A stretch of 64,000 bases of DNA from a virus (lineage: Duplodnaviria; Caudoviricetes): the IMG/VR virus record IMGVR_UViG_3300010355_000588. The stretch is one strand, 5' to 3'. Within the stretch, counting starts at the first letter, position 1, and each line of letters starts with the position of its first letter. The position numbers were made by a program, and so were the translations under genes. This document shows positions 5,779 to 62,476 of the stretch, piece by piece. Under the pieces are notes generated by a model. It did no database searches. It saw nothing but the letters and a program-made list of their open reading frames with translations, and was not told the origin of the DNA.

Positions 5779-5836
5779 AGCGTTCCAATTGTTTCATGGT
5801 TTAGTTTATTTATCTCAACCTTCTAGAAAAGATAGA

Positions 5837-9168: not shown

Positions 9169-9513
9169 TTACTTTTTGAAGTTGGGATTTTCTTCGTTGT
9201 CTACTAAATCAAAAAATACATTAGAAATACCATTTGCTGCAGTATTTTTCTTTGCATTTTGAATGTTCTTAACTAAATCTTCTATTGTGCGCGGTTTTGT
9301 ATTGATTTTTTTCCTTCCCCTCTCATTTTGATAAGATTCGCCTGCTTTTAGGGTATTTGAATAATATTCAATAAGCTCTGGCAAAGTTCCAGATTTAAAA
9401 GAAAACTTACCATTGCTTCTTATTTGTTTGATTGTATAAATTTTAGTAGAATCTTCTTTTATACAATCAGCCGATTCTTTAATAATCTTTTCAACCAACT
9501 GTTCAAATTTCAT
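9169..9513 (-). CDS. Putative internal head protein (MKF leader)
   Basis: 114 aa; N-terminus MKFEQLVEKIIKE-S followed by a basic domain. Confidence 0.55.
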   Translation of the reverse strand: MKFEQLVEKIIKESADCIKEDSTKIYTIKQIRSNGKFSFKSGTLPELIEYYSNTLKAGESYQNERGRKKINTKPRTIEDLVKNIQNAKKNTAANGISNVFFDLVDNEENPNFKK

Positions 9514-16835: not shown

Positions 16836-17072
16836 TTATTGCAGGTTAGACGTCCCATCGACATAATCTCCAAGATCGATTTCCATGGATTCAGCTGTCA
16901 TTTCATTATTTTCATACTTGGAATAAGCACAGACCGTCATGCGAATATCTTCTCCACGTTCATTCCCATAGTTAATAAAGTGGTTGTCAGCAGAAATTAC
17001 AGCGTCATGCTTCTTCAGAAGTTCCTTTAGTTCGTTCAAAAATTCGATTTCACGTGCATTCAGGTTTTTCAT
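16836..17072 (-). CDS. Hypothetical early protein
   Basis: Directly behind promoter-RBS cassette copy 1; ATG at 17072 (MKNLNARE). Confidence 0.7.
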   Translation of the reverse strand: MKNLNAREIEFLNELKELLKKHDAVISADNHFINYGNERGEDIRMTVCAYSKYENNEMTAESMEIDLGDYVDGTSNLQ

Positions 17073-17075
17073 CGT

Positions 17076-17156
17076 CAATCTCCTTTAGTTATTTCAGCAT
17101 AGTATATAATACAACCGAAAGGAGGATTTGTCAACAGGTTTAGCAAAAAAACCTCT
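17076..17156 (-). promoter_or_regulatory. Sigma70-type early promoter plus RBS cassette, copy 1
   Basis: TTGACA-17 nt-TATTAT, then ATACTATGCTGAAATAACTAAAGGAGA; T-tract UP element upstream. Confidence 0.85.
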
Positions 17157-17382
17157 ACAATTTTTCATCAAAAATACCGTCGTCGCATTCATCTGCTTCT
17201 TCACCATCTACTTGAATCCATCCATTTGAAAAAGCCAACTGGTTGTTAGATGCTATCAAAGCCACCAAAACCCACCAACCAGAATGCCCAAGAAAGAATA
17301 CAGCGTAACCAAACAAACCCCATACTATAGCCTGGTAGCAGACAGAATAAATCATGTACATCGTAAATGCTTTATCGCTCAT
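17155..17382 (-). CDS. Small membrane protein
   Basis: 75 aa with two hydrophobic segments, an acidic tail and an AAGGAG RBS. Confidence 0.65.
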   Translation of the reverse strand: MSDKAFTMYMIYSVCYQAIVWGLFGYAVFFLGHSGWWVLVALIASNNQLAFSNGWIQVDGEEADECDDGIFDEKL

Positions 17383-17394
17383 TTTGAGTCTCCT

Positions 17395-18309
17395 TTAGTT
17401 GGCATGGTTTCTATTTACTTTGATTTCTACCCACTCACCAGTGTCTGTTGACAAATATGATGGAACAAATAAAAAATCATCCGTATCTTCGATGGAAACA
17501 TAACTAAGTGGAGTTGACTGCAGTAGATAATGTTGAAGAATCCCGTAGTCAGATCCAACGTTTATCCCACCAGAAAAGCAATTCTTCTTTCCAGATACGT
17601 TCTGTCCAACGGTACGGTTGTGGGTATGGCCGCAGATGACCCAGTCGAAGTCGAACCCCTTCAAGAAGTTTTCGCAGCCACTGTAGACAGTATATGGATT
17701 GTGTTGGAATGGCCAGACATTCAGTTCGGCGCATGGCACATGGTGGGTGACCAAGACCAGTTCTTTCTTCTGTCGTTCGCTTTTTGTCATCTTGGCCGTA
17801 TAGCCAGCATATTCGTTCTTGATCTTAAGAGCGCAAAGCTCATGATATGTCTTCCAATCTTTGCCAAAGCCCTTGATAAGTTTGTCCGACCAGGTTCCAT
17901 CGGCAAAGTCCTCGACCTTCTGACCTGGGTTGTGCTTCAGCAGCGATCCATCGAAGAACAACGCATTTCCAAAGAAGACCATGTCGCCAAATTCTACACG
18001 GCCAACGATATCTAAGTAATGCACGTGATATTTGTCTGGCTGATATTTTCTGATGTAGAAGCCAATGGTTTCTTCGTAGGTGCGGTTATAGAACTCATGG
18101 TTGCCAAGCGTACAGACAGCTGGAATACCTTGGAACAGCTCAGCTAAATCCTTATATGGACTTAGAACATTGCTTTCGTGGATGTCTCCAGAGCATACGA
18201 TTAGCTCTGGCTTCAGGGTGTCCAGCAACTTGGCGATTTCTTTGTCCTGCCACCGATTGCTTTTCTTGGTAGCTGAGCGATGCAGGTCTGACAGACACAG
18301 AATTTTCAT
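17395..18309 (-). CDS. Calcineurin-like metallophosphoesterase
   Basis: SDLH, SGDI, LGNHE, THH and GHTH motifs. Confidence 0.9.
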   Translation of the reverse strand: MKILCLSDLHRSATKKSNRWQDKEIAKLLDTLKPELIVCSGDIHESNVLSPYKDLAELFQGIPAVCTLGNHEFYNRTYEETIGFYIRKYQPDKYHVHYLDIVGRVEFGDMVFFGNALFFDGSLLKHNPGQKVEDFADGTWSDKLIKGFGKDWKTYHELCALKIKNEYAGYTAKMTKSERQKKELVLVTHHVPCAELNVWPFQHNPYTVYSGCENFLKGFDFDWVICGHTHNRTVGQNVSGKKNCFSGGINVGSDYGILQHYLLQSTPLSYVSIEDTDDFLFVPSYLSTDTGEWVEIKVNRNHAN

Positions 18310-18713
18310 TTAGCTTTGTCCTTTCTAAATAAATAAATAATGTTACTATATAAATTGAAAGATAGAAGATGAAGTTTGAAAATAAAATCCAAAGCATATT
18401 GAATGAAACAGCATATGCTGGTAGTTCAGGGGAAAAATTAAAAGTTATAGTAGATTTAACCCGTCCAAAGGATGGCCCGGTTGACATGCAAAAACTAATG
18501 AAAGACATTGATTTTTCTAAGAAGTATGGCTTGATTTTAGATAAAAGATCAAATCTAACTAATCCAGAAAAAGCTGTCTTTATATTCGATAACAGTTTAG
18601 AAATAAAGAAAGCATTTCTATCAGTATTATATATGAATGGGTTTACTGACGTAGACATAAAAAAATACGTTCATTTTGGCTCATATTAATTTTCATTTAG
18701 CTTTGTCCTTTCT
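18301..18713. mobile_element. Inserted single-gene cassette bounded by perfect 26-bp direct repeats
   Basis: AATTTTCATTTAGCTTTGTCCTTTCT at 18301-18326 and 18688-18713. Confidence 0.75.
18369..18689 (+). CDS. Putative internal head protein (MKF leader), antisense to the surrounding operon
   Basis: MKFENKIQSILNE-TA; AATAAATA late-promoter motifs at 18328-18339. Confidence 0.7.
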   Translation: MKFENKIQSILNETAYAGSSGEKLKVIVDLTRPKDGPVDMQKLMKDIDFSKKYGLILDKRSNLTNPEKAVFIFDNSLEIKKAFLSVLYMNGFTDVDIKKYVHFGSY

Positions 18714-19442
18714 GAACGAATATTTGTCATATCCCTTAGAAGCGGCGAGCACCTTGTCGCCACCTACGGGAACCGCTACTTCCTTTTCCTTAGCCAGGTT
18801 GTTGCCAAGGTACATGTCGATCTCTTGAGAAGCTTGATATGGATTCACCATCCTATAGAATTCGAAGTCCTTCAGACATGGATTCGTAATGAATCTGACA
18901 CATGAATTGCTATATCTGTTATTAGCCTTAGAAATCCGAATGTTTTTCCTGGCGAGCAAGAAGACCGGCGTATCGAATTCCTGGAACAGCTTAGTGGCTG
19001 GGACCTCTGACAGCTTCGAGAACATTTCCATAATCCTTGTCTTATATCCACTATAGAAGAATCCATCTTTGATCTCATCCAAGATTTCTTCGTGGTCGTA
19101 GATATGCCTGGTCTCTTCAAACACATTCCTAAGTATATAGTTTTTTGCGTGCACTTTAATGACTGGATACAATTTGCCACAAAATCCAAGGAAGAATCCC
19201 TCTTCGTCTTTGTCTACATCATGGATGGATCCATCCTTAGCAACATAATGTTTGTCATGGCCGTTACTATTAGAGGTTCTACCTAAGAACTGGTGGATCA
19301 GCTCTAGATCGATTCCATTGTAGCGCTTCTTCTGATCTAGAATAAGATCAGTTTCCTCAGACTTTCTGAGATAAGTAAGTCTATTGTCGGTGAAATCTAC
19401 CGTCCCGTCGTAGTAGTCTTTGAAGTCAGATATGATTTTCAT
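18693..19442 (-). CDS. Conserved-type hypothetical phage protein
   Basis: 249 aa, MKIISDFKDYYD...GFCGKLYP...GYDKYSFRK; ATGA-coupled to the upstream gene. Confidence 0.75.
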   Translation of the reverse strand: MKIISDFKDYYDGTVDFTDNRLTYLRKSEETDLILDQKKRYNGIDLELIHQFLGRTSNSNGHDKHYVAKDGSIHDVDKDEEGFFLGFCGKLYPVIKVHAKNYILRNVFEETRHIYDHEEILDEIKDGFFYSGYKTRIMEMFSKLSEVPATKLFQEFDTPVFLLARKNIRISKANNRYSNSCVRFITNPCLKDFEFYRMVNPYQASQEIDMYLGNNLAKEKEVAVPVGGDKVLAASKGYDKYSFRKDKAK

Positions 19443-19801
19443 TTTATCATCGATTCTTTTCTAGCAATGTTTTCAAGACACTCAACCATATAATCAGCAT
19501 CATGCTCAGCATATCTATAATGACTATAGAACGGCGAATGCTGTGGCCATGGCATGCAATTCTTGCCTCGATATTCTGGTTCTTCCCAAGCGTTGTCGTA
19601 ATTGTATCCACGTCTCTTCATCTCGTCCATGACTTCGCAGTGATAGACATATAGATAGATTGGATCGTATTTGAAGACATAGTCTACAGTAGAGTGCTTT
19701 CTACCCCATCCATTTCCACGAAGAGCACAACACTCTCGGTGTTGGCCAAGGATCCGCTGGTTGGAAAGATCACCAAGCATGTCTACGTGCCAGAGCCTCA
19801 T
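19439..19801 (-). CDS. TIGR02328-type protein (pyrimidine-dimer glycosylase/endonuclease V-like family)
   Basis: MRLWH...LGQHRECCALRGNGWGRKHSTVDYVF...EMKRRGY signature; start re-assigned to ATG 19801. Confidence 0.8.
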   Translation of the reverse strand: MRLWHVDMLGDLSNQRILGQHRECCALRGNGWGRKHSTVDYVFKYDPIYLYVYHCEVMDEMKRRGYNYDNAWEEPEYRGKNCMPWPQHSPFYSHYRYAEHDADYMVECLENIARKESMIK

Positions 19802-19802
19802 T

Positions 19803-20096
19803 TCAGTTTTCCTTTCTTTTAATATAACGGTCATATGCATGTCTTACAGAAGATGCTGATACCTCTCTTCCATGGACATGATATACCACAGAAGCTACGT
19901 ATTTCCAACCTTTCCAGGTAGCCGTAGTGTTGACACACAGATATACGGTATTAAGCATTCCATTTGTCCATCTTGTCCTTCTTTTTTTCTTATATGCTTT
20001 CAAACAATCCAAGCTAGCAAAGTTACTTTTGAGATGATCTACCATAGAAATTATCTTTTTTCCACAATATGGACATTTTTCAGTAAAATGGTTCAT
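19803..20096 (-). CDS. Hypothetical Zn-finger-like early protein
   Basis: 97 aa, CPYC...H...C, basic; AAGGA RBS. Confidence 0.5.
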   Translation of the reverse strand: MNHFTEKCPYCGKKIISMVDHLKSNFASLDCLKAYKKKRRTRWTNGMLNTVYLCVNTTATWKGWKYVASVVYHVHGREVSASSVRHAYDRYIKRKEN

Positions 20097-20127
20097 CGTC
20101 AGTTTCCTTAGTTATATTATGTCAAGC

Positions 20128-20286
20128 TTAAACCCCAAATGGAACGTCATCTTTATCTTCCACAGAAATCCAAACATGGCCAATAATGGCACGGCTTCCC
20201 CATTGAGTCATAATCTGCTTGCCGATTTTTCCAAGATTTCCATATAATAGGATTCCATTTTCCAATTTTGTATAAATCGTTTTCAT
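20128..20286 (-). CDS. Small early protein (52 aa, below the ORF-track cutoff)
   Basis: Hand-translated as MKTIYTKLENGILLYGNLGKIGKQIMTQWGSRAIIGHVWISVEDKDDVPFGV, directly behind cassette copy 2. Confidence 0.65.
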   Translation of the reverse strand: MKTIYTKLENGILLYGNLGKIGKQIMTQWGSRAIIGHVWISVEDKDDVPFGV

Positions 20287-20290
20287 TTTT

Positions 20291-20370
20291 CAATCTCCTT
20301 TAGTTATTTCAGTATAGTATATAATACAACAAGTATTCGGTTTTGTCAATAGGTTTAACAAAAAATCTCT
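20291..20370 (-). promoter_or_regulatory. Sigma70-type early promoter plus RBS cassette, copy 2
   Basis: TTGACA-17 nt-TATTAT...AAAGGAGA; 57 bp (20293-20349) identical to copy 3. Confidence 0.85.
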
Positions 20371-20902
20371 ATTTATTTTTAATATTTTCAATAAACACTT
20401 CAAAATGGTCCCTACCATAACCAAGCGTATGAGTTACTTTTCTGGCATGTTCTTTTATTCGCTCTTTGTTATAGCTTTTGATATAATCTTCCATATTAGA
20501 AAGCATCCACTCTCCATGATATCTAATGCTAGATCCGCCTAGATGATGCCAAAGCATTCCATTATGTTCAAACACATGTGGCCGTCTCATCTTCACGTAA
20601 TATTGATTTGTTTCTATATATGCTTCTCGTTCAGCACCTGTCATGGATAGGTAATTTTCTTCCCATTGCTTCTGTATCTTTTCATTCTTCCAAACCACAT
20701 GATTGCCATCGGTGAATTTTTCACATAATTCATGACGTTCTGGCACGAAGATAGACTTATAAATCAAAAACTTCTCAACAGTCTTTTCTGGGAATGCATA
20801 AATTCCGTATCTGGCTGGTGGAGAGTGGAATGTCCCTTTGCCTGAACTATCATAACCTTTTTGCTTAACGGGATTCAAACCACCCCATCTAATAAAGCGC
20901 AT
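20369..20902 (-). CDS. Hypothetical early protein
   Basis: 177 aa, MRFIRWGGL...FHSPPARYGIYAFP...LWHHL...DHFEVFIE. Confidence 0.75.
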   Translation of the reverse strand: MRFIRWGGLNPVKQKGYDSSGKGTFHSPPARYGIYAFPEKTVEKFLIYKSIFVPERHELCEKFTDGNHVVWKNEKIQKQWEENYLSMTGAEREAYIETNQYYVKMRRPHVFEHNGMLWHHLGGSSIRYHGEWMLSNMEDYIKSYNKERIKEHARKVTHTLGYGRDHFEVFIENIKNK

Positions 20903-20912
20903 TTGTCAATTC

Positions 20913-21095
20913 CTATTCTGTAAGATATTCAAGTGCTTCCAGATCTTCATCAAGAAACCATTCTTGAGCATTGAAATAAAGCTCGCCACATTTGTCACAA
21001 AAAAGAACAACCTCTCCTTTATAGCCAACTTTCTTTTCATCACGTTTCCAAACGTTTCCACACTCACATTTGATTTTTTCAGATTCGATTTTCAT
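20913..21095 (-). CDS. Small Zn-ribbon early protein
   Basis: MKIESEKIKCECG...CDKCG (60 aa) behind cassette copy 3; start re-assigned. Confidence 0.7.
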   Translation of the reverse strand: MKIESEKIKCECGNVWKRDEKKVGYKGEVVLFCDKCGELYFNAQEWFLDEDLEALEYLTE

Positions 21096-21101
21096 TTTTC
21101 G

Positions 21102-21158
21102 ATCTCCTTTAGTTATTTCAGTATAGTATATAATACAACAAGTATTCGGTTTTGTCAA
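21102..21158 (-). promoter_or_regulatory. Sigma70-type early promoter plus RBS cassette, copy 3
   Basis: Identical to 20293-20349. Confidence 0.85.
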
Positions 21159-21167
21159 CCCCCTAAA

Positions 21168-21175
21168 GATAAATA
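21168..21175 (+). promoter_or_regulatory. T4-like late promoter (GATAAATA)
   Basis: Variant of T4 TATAAATA upstream of the baseplate operon; the same motif precedes other virion operons. Confidence 0.65.
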
Positions 21176-21222
21176 ATTGTAAGCAATATCAATTTGATTC
21201 AATAACTTGGAGCAGGATCTAC

Positions 21223-21684
21223 ATGAAGAACACTTTTTATGATTACTTTATTCGCCTCCTAGAAAAGGAAGAAACTGGAGAACCGGACAAGGATGCTAAG
21301 GACGATAAAGGCAAAGAAAAGCCAGAGGCCCCTCCTGAAGAAGAAAAGACCCCAGAAGAACAGGAAGCTGAAGAGGTCGAAAAGAAGCTTAGAGAGCTAT
21401 CTGAAACTGGTTTTGCTAGATTCAAAGAAATCTTCGATAAGAAGTCTACGATTATCTTAGACAAGATCCGGAATGAAGGAATCGATCTAGTAATGAAGGA
21501 CTTCATAGACAAAGTATTCTTGCCAACCACTTCTACTGACGAGCAGCTATTCATCTCTCTAAGATATGACGAATTCATCGAGTTCATGATGGAACAATTC
21601 TCATCTGCAGCACTTGCTGTAGTAAAGAAACCAATGGCTAATAAGCCAGCCATGCTACAGACTACCAAGAAAGAATCCAAATAA
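21223..21684 (+). CDS. Acidic protein with a leader-like N-terminus, possible head/core protein
   Basis: MKNTFYDYFIRLLE followed by an E/K/P-rich linker. Confidence 0.55.
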   Translation: MKNTFYDYFIRLLEKEETGEPDKDAKDDKGKEKPEAPPEEEKTPEEQEAEEVEKKLRELSETGFARFKEIFDKKSTIILDKIRNEGIDLVMKDFIDKVFLPTTSTDEQLFISLRYDEFIEFMMEQFSSAALAVVKKPMANKPAMLQTTKKESK

Positions 21685-40677: not shown

Positions 40678-42280
40678 GCCAAAAGAAAGGGCAGTGGTTC
40701 TAGATCTTGTGTCAAAGTGTAATTATATTCATGCACAAAATAACTAAAGGAAAAGCTAATGGACACTATCAATATCGAAGCATTGAAAGCAACCATAAAT
40801 TCCAAGAGAGACAAATATTCGCCATTATCCATCTTGATTAAAGACAAACACCCAGACGTCTACCAATATCTCTCTTCCATCGATGGAGAATTCTCTGAAA
40901 AGCTATATCTATTGCTTAATGGAGAACGGCCAGTCTGCGAATATTGCGGAGGTCCAGTAAAGTTCAAGAACTTCCTAGATGGATTTGCTAAGACATGTAG
41001 CAAGAAATGCGCTGCCAAGAATCCAAATCGGTCAGAAAAGATCAAGAAAACCAATATGACGAAGTATGGCCAATCTTGCTCATTGCACGATACCACTAAT
41101 AAAGCCAAGACGAAAAGAACTTTAATGAAAAGGTATGGAGTCACTAACGCTTTCCAGATTCCGGCAGTTCAAAATAAGTTAGCTGAAAAAGAATATGCCA
41201 ATTGGTTAAAGATATTCGAAGAGCTGAAATTGAGTCCACTGTTTTCTTTAGAACAATATAGAGAATCTGAAAAAACCAAGCCGTTTGAATTCAAGTGTCT
41301 GGTTTGTGAAGAGATCTTTTCGGCGTATATCTGCAATGGATGGCGTCCGAAATGTCCAAATTGCTTCAAGAAGACAAAGCAATCATCCAACTTCCAGCAA
41401 GAAATCTACTCATATTTAAAGCAACTGTTCAACTACGAGACCAGCATTAGAATAAACGACCGACAGGTTCTGAATCCACTTGAGCTGGATTTCTATCTGT
41501 CAGAATATTCGACAGCCATCGAGTGCGACGGGACTTATTGGCATTCAGATGAGCGAAAGCCAAAAAGCTACCATGTCAAGAAAACAGAAGCATGTCTTGA
41601 AAAAAACATCAAGTTGATTCATATTCTAGAATCTCAGTGGGAAACTAAACAGAAAATAATCAAAGCAAGGCTGAAGCACTCCTTCCAGAAGACCAAATAT
41701 TCTATCTATGGAAGAAAGTGCGAGATCAGACATATCGACAACAAGAAATGCTCAGCTTTCTTGGACAAGTACCATATCCAGGGAAGCGATAAGTCGTCAG
41801 TGAAATATGGAGCGTTTTACAAGAACCGTCTGGTAGCTGTAATGACTTTCTCAAAGGCCCGCTTCGATAAGAAGGCTGAGTGGGAGATGGTTCGCTTTTG
41901 CACCATCGCTCACTTCAATGTTCTAGGCATAGCTGGAAAGTTGCTGAAGCAATTCGAAGTAGATAAAACTCCATCTAGTCTAGTGACTTATGCTGATAGA
42001 TCTTGGTCTGAAGGATCCAGCTATCTAAAGCTTGGATTCAAATTTTCTCATAACTCCTCGCCTAATTACTGGTATTATGGAGTTAGATCGTACAATGGAT
42101 TGAAACTATCTAGAATCCAATGCCAGAAACATAAGCTATCTAAGCTACTGAAGAAGTTCGACCCAACTATGTCTGAATATGAGAACATGAAGGCTAATAG
42201 CTTCTTCCGGGTTTGGGATTGTGGCAATGCTGTATATAAGAAGACATATTGAGAAGAAGCCAAAAGAAAGGGCAGTGGTT
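40678..42280 (+). mobile_element. Free-standing endonuclease insertion bounded by perfect 22-bp direct repeats
   Basis: GCCAAAAGAAAGGGCAGTGGTT at 40678-40699 and 42259-42280. Confidence 0.75.
40759..42252 (+). CDS. Hef-like homing endonuclease (Zn-finger/KYG repeats, Vsr-like nuclease, GNAT/Mom-like C-terminal domain)
   Basis: CxxC motifs, KYG repeats and ELDFYL...AIECDGTYWH, then YHIQG...LVAVMTF...EWEMVRFC...TYADRSWS...WDCG. Confidence 0.8.
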   Translation: MDTINIEALKATINSKRDKYSPLSILIKDKHPDVYQYLSSIDGEFSEKLYLLLNGERPVCEYCGGPVKFKNFLDGFAKTCSKKCAAKNPNRSEKIKKTNMTKYGQSCSLHDTTNKAKTKRTLMKRYGVTNAFQIPAVQNKLAEKEYANWLKIFEELKLSPLFSLEQYRESEKTKPFEFKCLVCEEIFSAYICNGWRPKCPNCFKKTKQSSNFQQEIYSYLKQLFNYETSIRINDRQVLNPLELDFYLSEYSTAIECDGTYWHSDERKPKSYHVKKTEACLEKNIKLIHILESQWETKQKIIKARLKHSFQKTKYSIYGRKCEIRHIDNKKCSAFLDKYHIQGSDKSSVKYGAFYKNRLVAVMTFSKARFDKKAEWEMVRFCTIAHFNVLGIAGKLLKQFEVDKTPSSLVTYADRSWSEGSSYLKLGFKFSHNSSPNYWYYGVRSYNGLKLSRIQCQKHKLSKLLKKFDPTMSEYENMKANSFFRVWDCGNAVYKKTY

Positions 42281-42289
42281 AGCTGCCCT
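42262..42289 (-). terminator. Rho-independent terminator after the sheath gene
   Basis: Minus strand AGGGCAG-CTAACCA-CTGCCCT followed by TTCTTTT. Confidence 0.8.
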
Positions 42290-42290
42290 G

Positions 42291-42314
42291 GTTGGTTAGT
42301 TAGTTAGTTAGTTA
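42291..42314. repeat. (GTTA)n microsatellite
   Basis: gttg gtta gtta gtta gtta gtta, between the sheath stop codon and the terminator. Confidence 0.7.
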
Positions 42315-44588
42315 GATAATTTCGTTAATTATCTCGGAGAAGTTGGCTCCAACGCGAGTCGCGTAGAAATCACAGAGGATGAACTCTGCGCTTCGAACAG
42401 GATTCACAAGGAATGCTGCTCGCATTTCATTGTTTTCAATGACGTCGGGTGGGTTGTTGGTCTGGTCACAAATGATCTGATAGGCATATAGACCACCAGC
42501 ATGTAGAGCATTCTTGAAGATAGGATCAACTGTGTCCTTGAAACGTCTGCGGGTGAACACATTATTGGGCTCATGCACAAAGTAACGTGCTACCTGATAG
42601 ACATAACGCTCCAGGCGCAAGAACAGCCGTCTGACGTTGACCCTGTCGAACGCAGATTTCTTCACCTGGGTCGTTTTCTGTCCCATGGCGACGATGCCTT
42701 CGACTGGATATAGCTTCGCATAGTTGATGCTCTTGATGTAGAGTTGGTCCGTTTCCTTCTGATTTGGAGCGAACGAAATATCCACTGCTGTGTTTATGAC
42801 GCCGCGGGTCAATCCAGCTGGGTCGTTCCAGATCTGGAAGTTTGCGTCGGTATAACAATAGATTCCACCCATCCAAACAGACTGAGGCATCCAGGTTTGC
42901 GCTCCAGAATAATCGTCGATAGCCTTCAACCATGTAGCATAGAGAGCAGCATAGGAGCTATTCAATCCAGTCACATAACGAAGTTTAGGAGCGATCTTAT
43001 TGCTGAAGGTGTTCGTGGGTGCTGTCTTGCGGATGTATTTTTCGTTCTGTTCCAATACGAGGTTTCTAGGAACGTCAAGAATCGCCATACAGTCTTTACG
43101 AATGTCTTGGCAGAACGTGATAAGTTCCTGACAGACTGCGCGCCAATATTGGACGTCGTCTGCCGATGCGATTTCTTTCTTATATTGGCTTGGATCATAC
43201 TTGAGTCCTTCAGTATCAGTGAAGCCGTTCGTGACGGTTTGGCTGACATTCCAGACCTGGTTCGATTCGTCGTAGACATATTGAGGAAGACGGATCAGAG
43301 AATCGAGATCGTCATATCCATCAGCGTCTGCGGTGAACTGAGCGATAGTGGATAGACCAGCGTCAAGAACAATGTCCAGTTGGAGGGAATCGATGTCGCC
43401 GACCTTTTCCAAAATCTTCTTGATCTCAGCTTGCATGCTTTTGCCATTGATGATCTTGACGACATCGGATTCGCTGAAGCCAAAGAACGAATATTCTGAA
43501 ACATCGTTGATAAGAACGACGTCACGGTCAACGCGGGAGATCGCGGGGTTAGTAATCGTGTTGTATTCGTTCTTCGAGGAGACGTTGTAGTTCTGGGGTT
43601 TCGCGTACATGCGGAAATATCCAGAATTCTGATTGACGATGTCTCCGATATATGCAGATTTTCCAGTCGAGTTGTCTTTAGCATATTTGTGGATGCTGCC
43701 AACAAACGATTCGACGACGGAGATCTGATATTTGCCTTGGTTCTGAGGATCTTTGTACGAACGACAAATCATGAGACCGATATGGTTCGAATAATCCTTG
43801 ACGATCGAAGTACCATTTTCTGAGAATTCGATGGTTGGGAAGCGCTTCGCAAGGTCTTCTGAGAGCGAAGAATAACGAAGCTGATTAGAAAGCTTAACGT
43901 AAAGTTCGTCTTCAGACATCGTAGTAATGCTTGTGATGACCTCTGAAACATCAGTATCAGAAGCAGCTGCTGCTAGATATTGGACCTTGATGGCGTCGAC
44001 TGGATCTACTAGAACAGCAATCATGCCTTCTTTAGCAAGTTCGCCAGAGAGGGATGAGTTTTCTGTTCCATTGACCGATTTGGTTTCGTCGACAAGCAAG
44101 AAGTCGTATGACTCGAGATTTTCGTCGAAGATATTGCCGAGCTTGATCAGGTCATATGCTTCGTTCGCGATAGAAATCGCAGAATGATTGATTGCAGAAT
44201 ATTGGCTATAGAAATCAGCAGCGCCAGAAACTTCCTTCTGGAATGTTCCACCCGTGATGGCGCCTGGTTCGCTGATCGTGATTCCATACGCCTTATAGTT
44301 CTTAGCCTGGATGTTGTTGTAGGGAAGTTTGCCAACGACGGGAACCCCGCCATTGTTGATAACTTCTTCGATTGCATAATGGAAATAGCGTTCTGCTTCG
44401 TTCGTTGGTTCGCCAAAGTTGGCGACTTTATCTGAAAGCGAAGAAAGAATGACGGGTTCGGAATCAGGGCCGCGAGAGGCATATCCAAGTACAAGGGCAT
44501 ATGTTCCTTCTAGGGTCTGCGCATATTGTGACAAATCGTGCTCCCTTATCTCTACACCTGGACTCTGAATATTTCTTAACATTTTCAT
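42312..44588 (-). CDS. gp18: Tail sheath protein
   Basis: SPGVEIREHDLS at the N-terminus; PAGLTRG and GQKT...SAFDRVNVRRLFL...EPN at the C-terminus. AGGAG RBS before ATG 44588; AATAAATA at 44622-44629. Confidence 0.95.
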   Translation of the reverse strand: MKMLRNIQSPGVEIREHDLSQYAQTLEGTYALVLGYASRGPDSEPVILSSLSDKVANFGEPTNEAERYFHYAIEEVINNGGVPVVGKLPYNNIQAKNYKAYGITISEPGAITGGTFQKEVSGAADFYSQYSAINHSAISIANEAYDLIKLGNIFDENLESYDFLLVDETKSVNGTENSSLSGELAKEGMIAVLVDPVDAIKVQYLAAAASDTDVSEVITSITTMSEDELYVKLSNQLRYSSLSEDLAKRFPTIEFSENGTSIVKDYSNHIGLMICRSYKDPQNQGKYQISVVESFVGSIHKYAKDNSTGKSAYIGDIVNQNSGYFRMYAKPQNYNVSSKNEYNTITNPAISRVDRDVVLINDVSEYSFFGFSESDVVKIINGKSMQAEIKKILEKVGDIDSLQLDIVLDAGLSTIAQFTADADGYDDLDSLIRLPQYVYDESNQVWNVSQTVTNGFTDTEGLKYDPSQYKKEIASADDVQYWRAVCQELITFCQDIRKDCMAILDVPRNLVLEQNEKYIRKTAPTNTFSNKIAPKLRYVTGLNSSYAALYATWLKAIDDYSGAQTWMPQSVWMGGIYCYTDANFQIWNDPAGLTRGVINTAVDISFAPNQKETDQLYIKSINYAKLYPVEGIVAMGQKTTQVKKSAFDRVNVRRLFLRLERYVYQVARYFVHEPNNVFTRRRFKDTVDPIFKNALHAGGLYAYQIICDQTNNPPDVIENNEMRAAFLVNPVRSAEFILCDFYATRVGANFSEIINEII

Positions 44589-44683: not shown

Positions 44684-45556
44684 TTACTTAGAAGAAGCTT
44701 CTAGGAGAGAATAATCGAGTTTTCCATCTGGAGATATCTTCAACAGCAACATTTCTCCTCTGTCTCCTCTGTAGTCTGTCTGGTCGCTGCAGAAGTTTCC
44801 AAGGCTATATGCCGTCAGATGGTCTTTTCCATTTATCTGGAATTTGTCTACGCGCTGGGGCACGTGCGGGTGAGAGCCAATTATGACGTCGAACAAATTG
44901 TTCTCATGTAGATAATTAGCTATTTCTAACTGATCTTTATTTGGCTTATGAGAATATTCTGAACCCCAGTGCATGTAGCATATTTTGAAATCTACTCTAA
45001 GCTCTTCAGCCTTAGCTACGTCGTTAACCACGTCTTCATATGAGAACATATTGACAATTGAAGACAATGGCTGAGGTTTTCTATTCAGGAGCATAGTATA
45101 GTTAGAAATGGATATGCGTCTTCCTTTTCTTTCTACTATCAGTGGGTTGTTTTTTTCCTTGTCCTTGTGGTCTATGAACGCGCCGGTTCTTCCGACCTTC
45201 AGCCAATCCAGGACAGAAACCGTACGTATAAGACCAGATTGGCCACGGTCTAGAATATGGTTGTTGGCGTTTAGAAAAACGTCGAAGCCTTCTTTGCGGT
45301 GTAAATCTATAGCGAATTTGTCAGGAGCTGAAAATTCTGGAAAGCCTCGAAAAGGAGCATCGCCCAACACTGTCTCAAGATTGACGACCTTTAGATCAGC
45401 CTCTGGCGTCTTTGGATATTCGAAGTGCCATCCATTGCCACCCTTTTCAGGCTTCCATGCTTTCCTCAGGGTTTCGTCATGGACCATAGCATCGCCAACA
45501 AACAATATAGTCAGCGGCTCTATCTGTTTTTCTAAAAAGAACCGTTCGAACTTCAT
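44684..45556 (-). CDS. CapA/PGA_cap-family metallophosphatase-fold protein with MKF leader
   Basis: VGD.M, NLET, ANNHILD, HWGSEY, IIGSHPHVPQ and YSLGNF motifs; no signal or transmembrane anchor. Confidence 0.9.
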   Translation of the reverse strand: MKFERFFLEKQIEPLTILFVGDAMVHDETLRKAWKPEKGGNGWHFEYPKTPEADLKVVNLETVLGDAPFRGFPEFSAPDKFAIDLHRKEGFDVFLNANNHILDRGQSGLIRTVSVLDWLKVGRTGAFIDHKDKEKNNPLIVERKGRRISISNYTMLLNRKPQPLSSIVNMFSYEDVVNDVAKAEELRVDFKICYMHWGSEYSHKPNKDQLEIANYLHENNLFDVIIGSHPHVPQRVDKFQINGKDHLTAYSLGNFCSDQTDYRGDRGEMLLLKISPDGKLDYSLLEASSK

Positions 45557-45855
45557 TTAAGCTTATCGCCTAGATATTTGACGTCTACGTTGCTATAGTG
45601 ATTGTCAAATTTTCTGTTGAAAGTCAAAAGTCTATATATGTCTACCATTTTGTCTTCTACCTTCTTAGAGACAGAATGTACAAAGCCAGCCAGGTTGCCT
45701 TCTTTCTTCAAGGTCTGAACTCGTCTGCCACCAATAGCATTGTCGCTTTCGATGGAATAATATCCATCCTTAGGAAAGAGACGGTCGATGGCAGCCTGTT
45801 CTTTTGAACTTATAGAATATTCTAGAATCGTTTGGATTTTTTCTTCGAACTTCAT
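45553..45855 (-). CDS. Putative internal head protein (MKF leader)
   Basis: MKFEEKIQTILE-YS; leader nearly identical to that of 18369..18689. Confidence 0.65.
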   Translation of the reverse strand: MKFEEKIQTILEYSISSKEQAAIDRLFPKDGYYSIESDNAIGGRRVQTLKKEGNLAGFVHSVSKKVEDKMVDIYRLLTFNRKFDNHYSNVDVKYLGDKLK

Positions 45856-60811: not shown

Positions 60812-62476
60812 ATGGAAACTATCAAAACAACAAATCTCCAACCCCAAACTCTAAAAGAAGAAATTTTGAAATATCTAGAAATTAAAAGTAAGAATATTTT
60901 AATTTGGGACATATGTAAAGAAAGAACAAAGTTAGCCACCGAAATATTGAAAAATACTGAGTTCTTACCAAAGAGCACGAAACCTCAAATTAGAATAGAA
61001 TATTGCCTTCAGGAATTAACAGATATAAAAAGGTGTAAGTGTGGTTGCGGATCTGAAGTTTATATAACAAATAGCTATTTACCTGGACATGCTAGACGAG
61101 ACGAAGAATCTAAAAAGAAATGGTTAGAAAAAATGCAAAAAACATCTAAAGAAAGATATGGAGACGACTATTTAAAGCAATTCCTTGAAAAAGCAAAGGA
61201 ATCTACTAGAAAAAATTATGGAGTAGATTATTCATTTCAAAGCAAACAGTTTCAAAAAGACATACAAAAGATAATAAAGAAGAAATATGGAGTTTCAAAC
61301 GTTTCGCAATTAGAATCGATAAAACAGAAAAAGAAAGAATCGTTTGCTAAAACTTTTGGTTGTAGCGTAGAAGATTACAACAACGCTGATGAATTTCTTA
61401 AAAAAATAGTCAAAAGTAGATATAAAAACACATTCAGTAGATTTGATAGATTTTCTAAAGAAGTTGTTCCGATGTTCTCTTTAGAAGAATATAATGGTGG
61501 TGGTTATGATAAAGCATATAAATGGCTTTGCAAAAAATGTGGAAATGAGTTTGAACATTGGTATTGGAATGGTTGTATTCCAAAATGTCCAACTTGTTAT
61601 CCGATATGCTATTCTTCTTTTGAAATCGATGTTGCTAATTTTCTTAGCTCGTTAGATAACTCTTTAGAAATTCTAAAAAATGACAGAAAACATATTTCTC
61701 CGTTAGAATTAGATATATACTTGCCTTCAAAAAAATTAGCCTTTGAACTAAATGGTAACCATTGGCATACGGAAAATATAGGAGGTAAAGATAAAAACTA
61801 TCATTTGAACAAGACAATTGAGTGCGAGCTTAATGGAACAAGACTTATACATATTTTTGAAGATGAATGGCTAGAAAAAAATAAGATATCAAAAGCCAAG
61901 ATAAAACATCTATTAGGTCAGACAAGATATTCTATTGGCGCTAGAAAGTGTGAAATTAGGCAAATAGATAACAATATTAAAAATGTTTTTCTGGACAAGT
62001 ACCATATCCAAGGCCGCGACAAATCGTCTGTCAAGCTCTGAGCATTCTACAAGAACCGGCTAGTAGCTGTAATGACCTTCGGCAAGTCTAGATATGACAA
62101 GAAGATAGAGTGGGAGATGATTAGATTTTGCACAGTAAACAACTTTAACATAATTGGAATATGTAGCAAACTCCTAACTTATTTTGAAAAGCATTATTCT
62201 CCGTCTTCTATTATATCTTACTGTGATAAAAGATGGAGCACGGGAAAAACGTACGAAAATTGTGGTTTCAAATATTCCGGAGAATCATCGCCGAACTATT
62301 GGTATAATAAAAAGGGAGTAAGACGGATATCTAGAATGCAATATCAAAAACACATGTTAAAGGACAAATTAGAGGAGTTTGATCCGACGCTAACCGAGTG
62401 GGAGAATATGCAAAAGAATGGTTTCGATAGAATCTGGGACTGTGGTAATAAAATATTTGTCAAATCTTTTAGTTGA
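60812..62476 (+). pseudogene. Second Hef-like homing endonuclease, interrupted by an in-frame TGA
   Basis: ORFs 60812..62041 and 62072..62476 are in the same frame. SSVKL*AFYKNRLVAVMTF aligns with SSVKYGAFYKNRLVAVMTF of the intact paralog. Confidence 0.85.

Follow-up and report, generated by a model that had tools for sequence, protein, structure and literature searches.

The locus raises the question of how one small AT-rich gene came to stand between two phage genes with the same 26 bp on either side of it, and what kind of event left this arrangement. The window analyzed here is the whole 64,000-nucleotide (64-kb) stretch of the virus record IMGVR_UViG_3300010355_000588. The 26-mer AATTTTCATTTAGCTTTGTCCTTTCT occurs in it as two exact copies, at 18301–18326 and 18688–18713 (plus-strand coordinates), and no third copy was found in the window, even when up to 3 mismatches were allowed. 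Shuffling the sequence 100 times gave 0 matches, and the chance expectation is none. A local null was obtained from 266 random gene-sized intervals of the same window, for which the longest flanking direct repeats were 7–12 bp. Both edges of the 26-bp repeat are sharp. Past the edge on the right, 6 of 9 further bases are identical; a longer, decayed duplication was considered on these matches and set aside as unconvincing, their estimated chance probability being about 0.03.

The reverse complement of the 26-mer, AGAAAGGACAAAGCTAAATGAAAATT, contains the end of the 249-aa gene, its six final codons followed by TGA. On this minus strand, the TGA overlaps (ATGA) the ATG AAA ATT start of the metallophosphoesterase gene. 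Each copy of the repeat serves one neighbor (Table 1) and carries a relic of the other. In the left copy, the relic consists of the final codons and stop of the 249-aa gene, which have no function there; in the right copy, it is a useless remnant of the metallophosphoesterase start (ATG AAA ATT). From these reciprocal relics, we infer that the ancestral state was a single ATGA-coupled junction. On evidence drawn entirely from within the locus, 361 bp were inserted with a 26-bp target duplication into this formerly coupled junction. The preliminary description had proposed just such an insertion between neighbors that both stayed intact; the reciprocal remnants bear out the former point, and the complete 304-aa and 249-aa genes the latter. 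The flanking repeats are copies of one unique target sequence, and the duplication runs from the RBS through the stop codon, which is all that both neighbors need to remain functional. The metallophosphoesterase gene now lies 387 bp from its former coupling partner. The start of a 17-codon remnant ORF still ATGA-overlaps the stop of the 249-aa gene, and ribosomes may re-initiate there.

Table 1. Coordinates of the features of the insertion locus and of related features elsewhere in the window.
Feature	Position	Strand	Description
Metallophosphoesterase gene	17395..18309	-	304 aa, intact; Pfam Metallophos E=8e-19; phrog_1649
Left 26-bp copy	18301..18326	-	Working RBS (AAGGA) and ATG AAA ATT start of the metallophosphoesterase gene
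AT-rich insert leader	18327..18368	+	Promoter motifs and weak purine-rich RBS GAAAGATAGAAG
Two overlapping late-promoter motifs AATAAATA	18328-18335, 18332-18339	+	33 and 29 nt upstream of the ATG
TATAAATT	18349-18356	+	Within the insert leader
106-aa cargo ORF	18369..18689	+	N-terminal leader MKFENKIQSILNE; GC3 0.26; predicted alpha/beta fold
Remnant 17-codon ORF MKINMSQNERIFLCLRQ (then stop)	18643..18696	-	Starts at the duplicated metallophosphoesterase ATG and enters the insert
Right 26-bp copy	18688..18713	-	Functional 3' end (six codons and TGA) of the 249-aa gene
249-aa gene	18693..19442	-	Function unknown; phrog_4243; intact
M[KR]F leader genes (five, otherwise unrelated)	starts 9513, 18369, 45855, 56073, 57184		Candidate capsid-targeting or propeptide leader
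Second footprint	40678..42280	+	Perfect 22-bp duplication GCCAAAAGAAAGGGCAGTGGTT at 40678-40699 and 42259-42280
Hef-like homing endonuclease gene	40759-42252	opposite strand	497 aa, between the genes for tail sheath and tail tube

The insert (18327–18687, 361 bp) stands apart in composition. Its GC content of 28.3% is in the lowest 0.14% among all 361-bp intervals; the genome average is 40.7%, and the flanks have 42–45% as compared with 28% in the insert. The GC3 value of the 106-aa ORF was 0.26 versus 0.50–0.52 in both neighbor genes. This ORF occupies nearly the whole insert, and the last two bases of its TAA are the first two of the right repeat. The chance of a 106-codon open frame in 28%-GC DNA was estimated at about 1e-4. 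We found no terminal inverted repeats on the insert, no second copy of it within the window, and no transposase, integrase or recombinase gene inside it. In the window scanned, the cassette thus lacks what marks a DNA transposon or a miniature element, namely multiple copies and terminal inverted repeats. No terminator-like site was found downstream of the 106-aa ORF on the plus strand. Structured RNA was rejected as the content of the insert: Rfam gave no credible match in 17000–21500 and none in the insert, no tRNA was found, and the folding z-score of the insert RNA was an unremarkable −1.7.

The promoter motifs of the insert leader were judged against the distribution of [ATG]ATAAATA over the window. 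Twelve of the 16 sites lie at most 80 nt upstream of a same-strand start, in a window of which merely 6% is non-coding. The sites are concentrated 19–64 nt before gene starts (for example at 5807, 16286, 21168, 40639, 44622, 54901, 60740, and 62499) and include those preceding the sheath, the tube, and the 1243-aa virion-protein genes. This positional concentration identifies NATAAATA as the probable T4-type late promoter of this phage. The 106-aa cargo gene has a NATAAATA motif at the canonical (usual) distance. The insert had been described as a minimal unit of late-promoter motifs and a single opposite-strand gene with an MKF leader, lacking a transposase and inverted ends. The first part of this description agrees with the present results, and the second was confirmed by the ORF and terminal-repeat checks.

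The genome is T4-like. Besides UvsY and two helicases, the window encodes a tail sheath, a tail tube, and two baseplate proteins (one gp25-like, the other a T4 baseplate protein), and it has the late promoters described above. The window ORFs scanned included no integrase, and a Pfam scan of ~38 window ORFs detected no recombinase or transposase family. The locus does not differ by a single letter between an ENA contig (163,887 bp) and a Logan contig from SRR5007225. The same structure in two assemblies excludes an assembly error, which settles the concern over an artefact raised in the preliminary description. The contigs are 100% identical over 3.2–10.7 kb and hence show no population variation; all contigs with the flanking genes (6/6) also carry the insert. 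The assemblies are circular permutations of a ~164-kb genome. The window would overrun the end of the 163,887-bp ENA contig, in which window position 18369 lies at 142,907.

A megablast search of 50,697 phage records returned no match. With the 249-aa protein as a query, tblastn matched jumbo phages only (26–28% identity), IMG/VR contained one locus at 28% identity, and the nearest homolog in a search of 5.8 billion proteins was 36% identical. The gene order was not kept on the contigs of two distant homologs of this protein. An exact scan of IMG/VR and JGI metagenome contigs for the 26-mer gave 0 matches. Neither an empty-site allele nor a close relative was found in the databases searched (phage records, IMG/VR, JGI, and protein clusters).

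The 106-aa protein matched only itself among 5.8 billion clustered proteins, and a full HMMER pass over 1.84 billion representative proteins yielded no relatives. The one other HMMER match, P0089 (E = 1.6e-5), was discarded: it is a TPR-repeat protein, and its score is a 24-residue helix match summed over the repeats. Pfam gave nothing above the curated cut-offs (three sub-threshold matches, E 0.05–0.09), there was no PHROG match, and neither Foldseek (against the PDB and BFVD) nor the ESM Atlas produced a match better than chance. As judged from the Pfam, PHROG, and fold searches, the cargo ORF does not encode a nuclease, which sets it apart from a homing-endonuclease cassette. A single-sequence AlphaFold model of the protein was fairly confident (pLDDT 75.7, pTM 0.68) and showed an alpha/beta fold.

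The N-terminus of the cargo belongs to a leader that recurs in otherwise unrelated proteins of this phage. Residues 1–36 are 50% identical to the N-terminus of the 100-aa gene at 45553–45855 (E = 6e-6). The leader M[KR]F-x(3-10)-[LI]-x-E was found at 5 of the 64 N-termini in the window versus 1 of 373 internal Met residues. By sequence, the leader MKFENKIQSILNE resembles T4 capsid-targeting sequences. The internal proteins of T-even phages are a very diverse injected anti-restriction set, whose only common feature is a capsid-targeting leader (PMC3012670). IPI, IPII, and IPIII of T4 are likewise small, diverse late proteins with only a short N-terminal leader ending in (L/I)-x-E in common, and their genes show a cassette-like variation between related phages. 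The cargo carries a leader of the T4 kind, which has 10–13 residues, ends in (L/I)-x-E, and is common to unrelated proteins; it has no sequence or fold similarity to T4 IPI*. By analogy, the cargo is a putative late payload protein that is possibly capsid-loaded. As in T4, the protein may enter the capsid, be shortened there by the prohead protease (with a predicted cut after ...SILNE), and leave together with the DNA; an anti-defense role would be one example. The gene of this protease lies outside the window. If the cargo is indeed capsid-loaded and ejected, the locus would represent a phage adding a new candidate anti-defense payload.

The late promoter of the phage's own type and the N-terminal leader argue that the cargo came from the T4-like phage gene pool and not from host DNA. 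The gene capture assumed in the preliminary description is therefore retained as an insertion and abandoned as an uptake of generic foreign DNA, the cargo having a late promoter and a leader of the phage type. Two further genes of the window have a similarly extreme composition. The 114-aa MKF-leader gene at 9169–9513 has a GC3 value of 0.235, about as low as that of the cargo, and the second Hef-like/DUF7487 gene at 60812–62041 (409 aa) has one of 0.246; both are without flanking repeats. The very low GC3 of the cargo, 114-aa, and 409-aa genes suggests a common low-GC donor pool. No other low-GC or MKF-leader gene in the window was found to have flanking repeats.

The preliminary description had suggested a scan for 20–30-bp direct repeats around single genes. 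Carried out over the window, the scan uncovered a second case, a 22-bp repeat around a Hef-like gene (Table 1), which is the single additional unique perfect repeat that brackets a lone opposite-strand gene. The same genome thus holds a second event of the same type with a different cargo. The 497-aa gene product matches phrog_3339 (2e-108) and is annotated as Hef/homing endonuclease in Campylobacter, Klebsiella, and Shewanella phages. The right copy of the 22-bp repeat corresponds to the 3' arm of the sheath terminator together with its T-tract. In the left copy, a remnant, the second terminator arm is missing, and no function is obvious. Because this copy is a functionless half-terminator, selection by itself does not account for the 22-bp duplication, which is a product of the mechanism. 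We considered the footprint as a trait of Hef-like endonucleases in general and rejected this, because around the Hef-like genes of other phages (n = 5) the flanking matches were at the chance level of 9–11 bp, as they were around the second Hef-like gene of the window. Two of these five genes are also opposite-strand insertions, located between gp23 and gp24. A GTTA/TTAG repeat run, GGTTGGTTAGTTAGTTAGTTAGTTAG, lies at 42283–42316 between the sheath stop codon and its terminator hairpin.

With these results in hand, we consider it probable that the 361-bp cassette of a late promoter and one gene was inserted once, without an element-encoded transposase or integrase, and that 26 bp of the target were copied to both sides. 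The insertion would have hit the ATGA-overlapped junction of two early genes in a ~164-kb T4-like phage. It could have occurred through break repair, in which the staggered ends were filled in and a foreign linear fragment was joined, or through a template switch of the polymerase, which resumed 26 bp upstream. We favor break repair or replication template switching. Staggered nicks followed by fill-in and blunt joining would give the same product and are not separable from the favored routes without the donor sequence. Illegitimate double-strand-break repair at microhomologies is a documented route of introns to ectopic sites in T4 (PMC2988022). The junction features visible here are the 2-nt overlap at the stop codon and the 6/9 matches past the other edge.

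Only insertions in which ~18 bp or more of the junction, from the RBS to the stop codon, became duplicated would have survived selection. Most positions of the 26-bp repeat are under selection in one or the other copy, and about 8 of the 26 are free to drift. With only these positions free, the perfect identity of the copies does not support the term recent, which the preliminary description had applied to the insertion. The 26-bp repeats would permit the loss of the cassette, or its transfer as a 387-bp circle, by homologous recombination. A precise loss would leave ...GACACAG, one 26-mer, GAACGAATA..., and the circle junction would read ...GGCTCATATT, one 26-mer, AAATAAATAAAT...

Of the known systems, insertion with long target duplication (Nobusato et al. 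2000, Gene 259:99; Furuta, Abe & Kobayashi 2010), which is independent of a transposase, fits best; the cargo here would be a moron-like late gene. Such insertions have been described in bacteria, where they involve restriction-modification genes, orphan methylases, and a lone HNH mcrA gene; their long target duplications are variable in length, come without mobility genes, and often extend over a translation start or stop, and the suspected cause is DNA breakage (PMC2853133). The present locus agrees with them in that a unique target is duplicated around an insert of deviant GC, no transposase, integrase, or inverted repeats are present, the repeats span a start or stop, the neighbors survive, and the repeat length varies by event (here 26 and 22 bp). 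The published cases, however, lie in bacterial chromosomes, involve restriction-modification or related nuclease genes, and have duplications of 30 bp to several hundred bp, whereas the present one concerns a virulent T4-like phage, 26 bp, and a small, non-nuclease cargo without relatives. At 26 and 22 bp, both duplications are below the arbitrary working threshold of Furuta 2010 (>30 bp) and above the usual transposon duplications. We found no description in the literature of this footprint in phages; it is known from bacteria. The locus adds a case in a virulent phage, with a non-nuclease cargo, to this known, mechanistically unexplained kind of insertion.

Classical morons are genes of temperate phages that are active in the prophage and generally come with a terminator. 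The morons of tailed phages, a subject connected with Juhala et al. (2000) and Hendrix, are reportedly extra single genes with their own promoter and a deviant composition, placed between genes that belong together. The cassette is similar in having its own promoter and a deviant GC content between otherwise contiguous genes, the contiguity being deduced from the ATGA remnants. It differs in its T4-type late promoter and visible insertion footprint, and the terminator and prophage setting of the classical moron are missing. The PeSL cassettes (Arbiol et al. 2010, PMC2839356) are also few-hundred-bp ORFan genes between direct repeats in T4-like genomes, and excision as a ~400-bp circle, as in the PeSL mini-circles, is possible for the cassette. 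PeSLs, however, are early promoter/stem-loop motifs that are dispersed in many copies per genome, whereas the 26-mer is a coding junction and unique.

The mini-circles offer a different account of the duplication. A 387-bp circle with the cargo and one 26-mer would have integrated by a single homologous crossover with the resident junction. T4-type phages form ~400-bp ORFan mini-circles through recombination of flanking repeats (PMC2839356), this phage encodes UvsY, and a PeSL-like 70-nt promoter cassette is duplicated 809 bp apart in the window. We nevertheless regard the circle as an unlikely source. The 26-mer is a unique coding junction and not a dispersed regulatory cassette, it occurs only twice in the window, and the IMG/VR and JGI scans revealed no other genome with it. 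Moreover, a circle that carries the 26-mer has to be excised from a genome in which it is already duplicated, so this route explains the spread of the cassette and not its origin. Movement in trans by a transposase or site-specific recombinase has an even smaller chance of being correct. In that case, the 26-mer would represent either a target-site duplication as long as those of IS1630/IS30 (19–26 bp) or an att-like core. The two insertions do have similar duplication lengths (22 and 26 bp), and variable duplications of 19–26 bp are reported for IS1630 (IS30 family, Mycoplasma fermentans; cited in PMC2853133). IS1630, however, encodes a transposase, is bounded by terminal inverted repeats, and uses inverted repeats as its targets; the cassette shows none of these. 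The insert has neither terminal inverted repeats nor conserved ends, the two inserts have no end sequences in common, no recombinase family was detected among the window ORFs scanned, and the target sequences are unrelated except for a CCTTTCT heptamer.

The 106-aa ORF has no homologs and its RBS is weak, as would be expected if it were not a gene and the repeat were an assembly artefact or a product of chance. We consider this extremely improbable. The structure is identical in two assemblies with different pipelines and accessions, and the repeat is far below the assembly k-mer length. Against a chance repeat stand the zero matches in the shuffles. The estimated open-frame chance of ~1e-4, the phage leader motif, the late promoter, and the confident fold prediction all speak for a gene.

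The gain of single accessory genes by virulent phages has mostly been deduced from mosaic comparisons, and fresh insertion footprints are seldom observed. The intact footprint reveals the exact ancestral junction, and how the duplication rescues two translationally coupled genes. We can raise only as a doubtful generalization that this lineage, and perhaps large DNA viruses and bacteria generally, might have an active transposase-free insertion route that leaves 20–30-bp target duplications and moves selfish nuclease genes and capsid-targeted payload genes alike. If such a route is real, the two perfect footprints would be direct traces of ORFan acquisition by virulent phages.

The window also contains a 70-nt repeat pair, 99% identical, at 20280–20349 and 21089–21158 (809 bp apart). 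Each copy comprises TTGACA-17-TATTAT, AACTAAAGGAGA, and ATGAAAA, and drives a small early gene. This repeat is a dispersed sigma-70-type promoter and RBS cassette, the equivalent of the PeSLs of T4-type phages.
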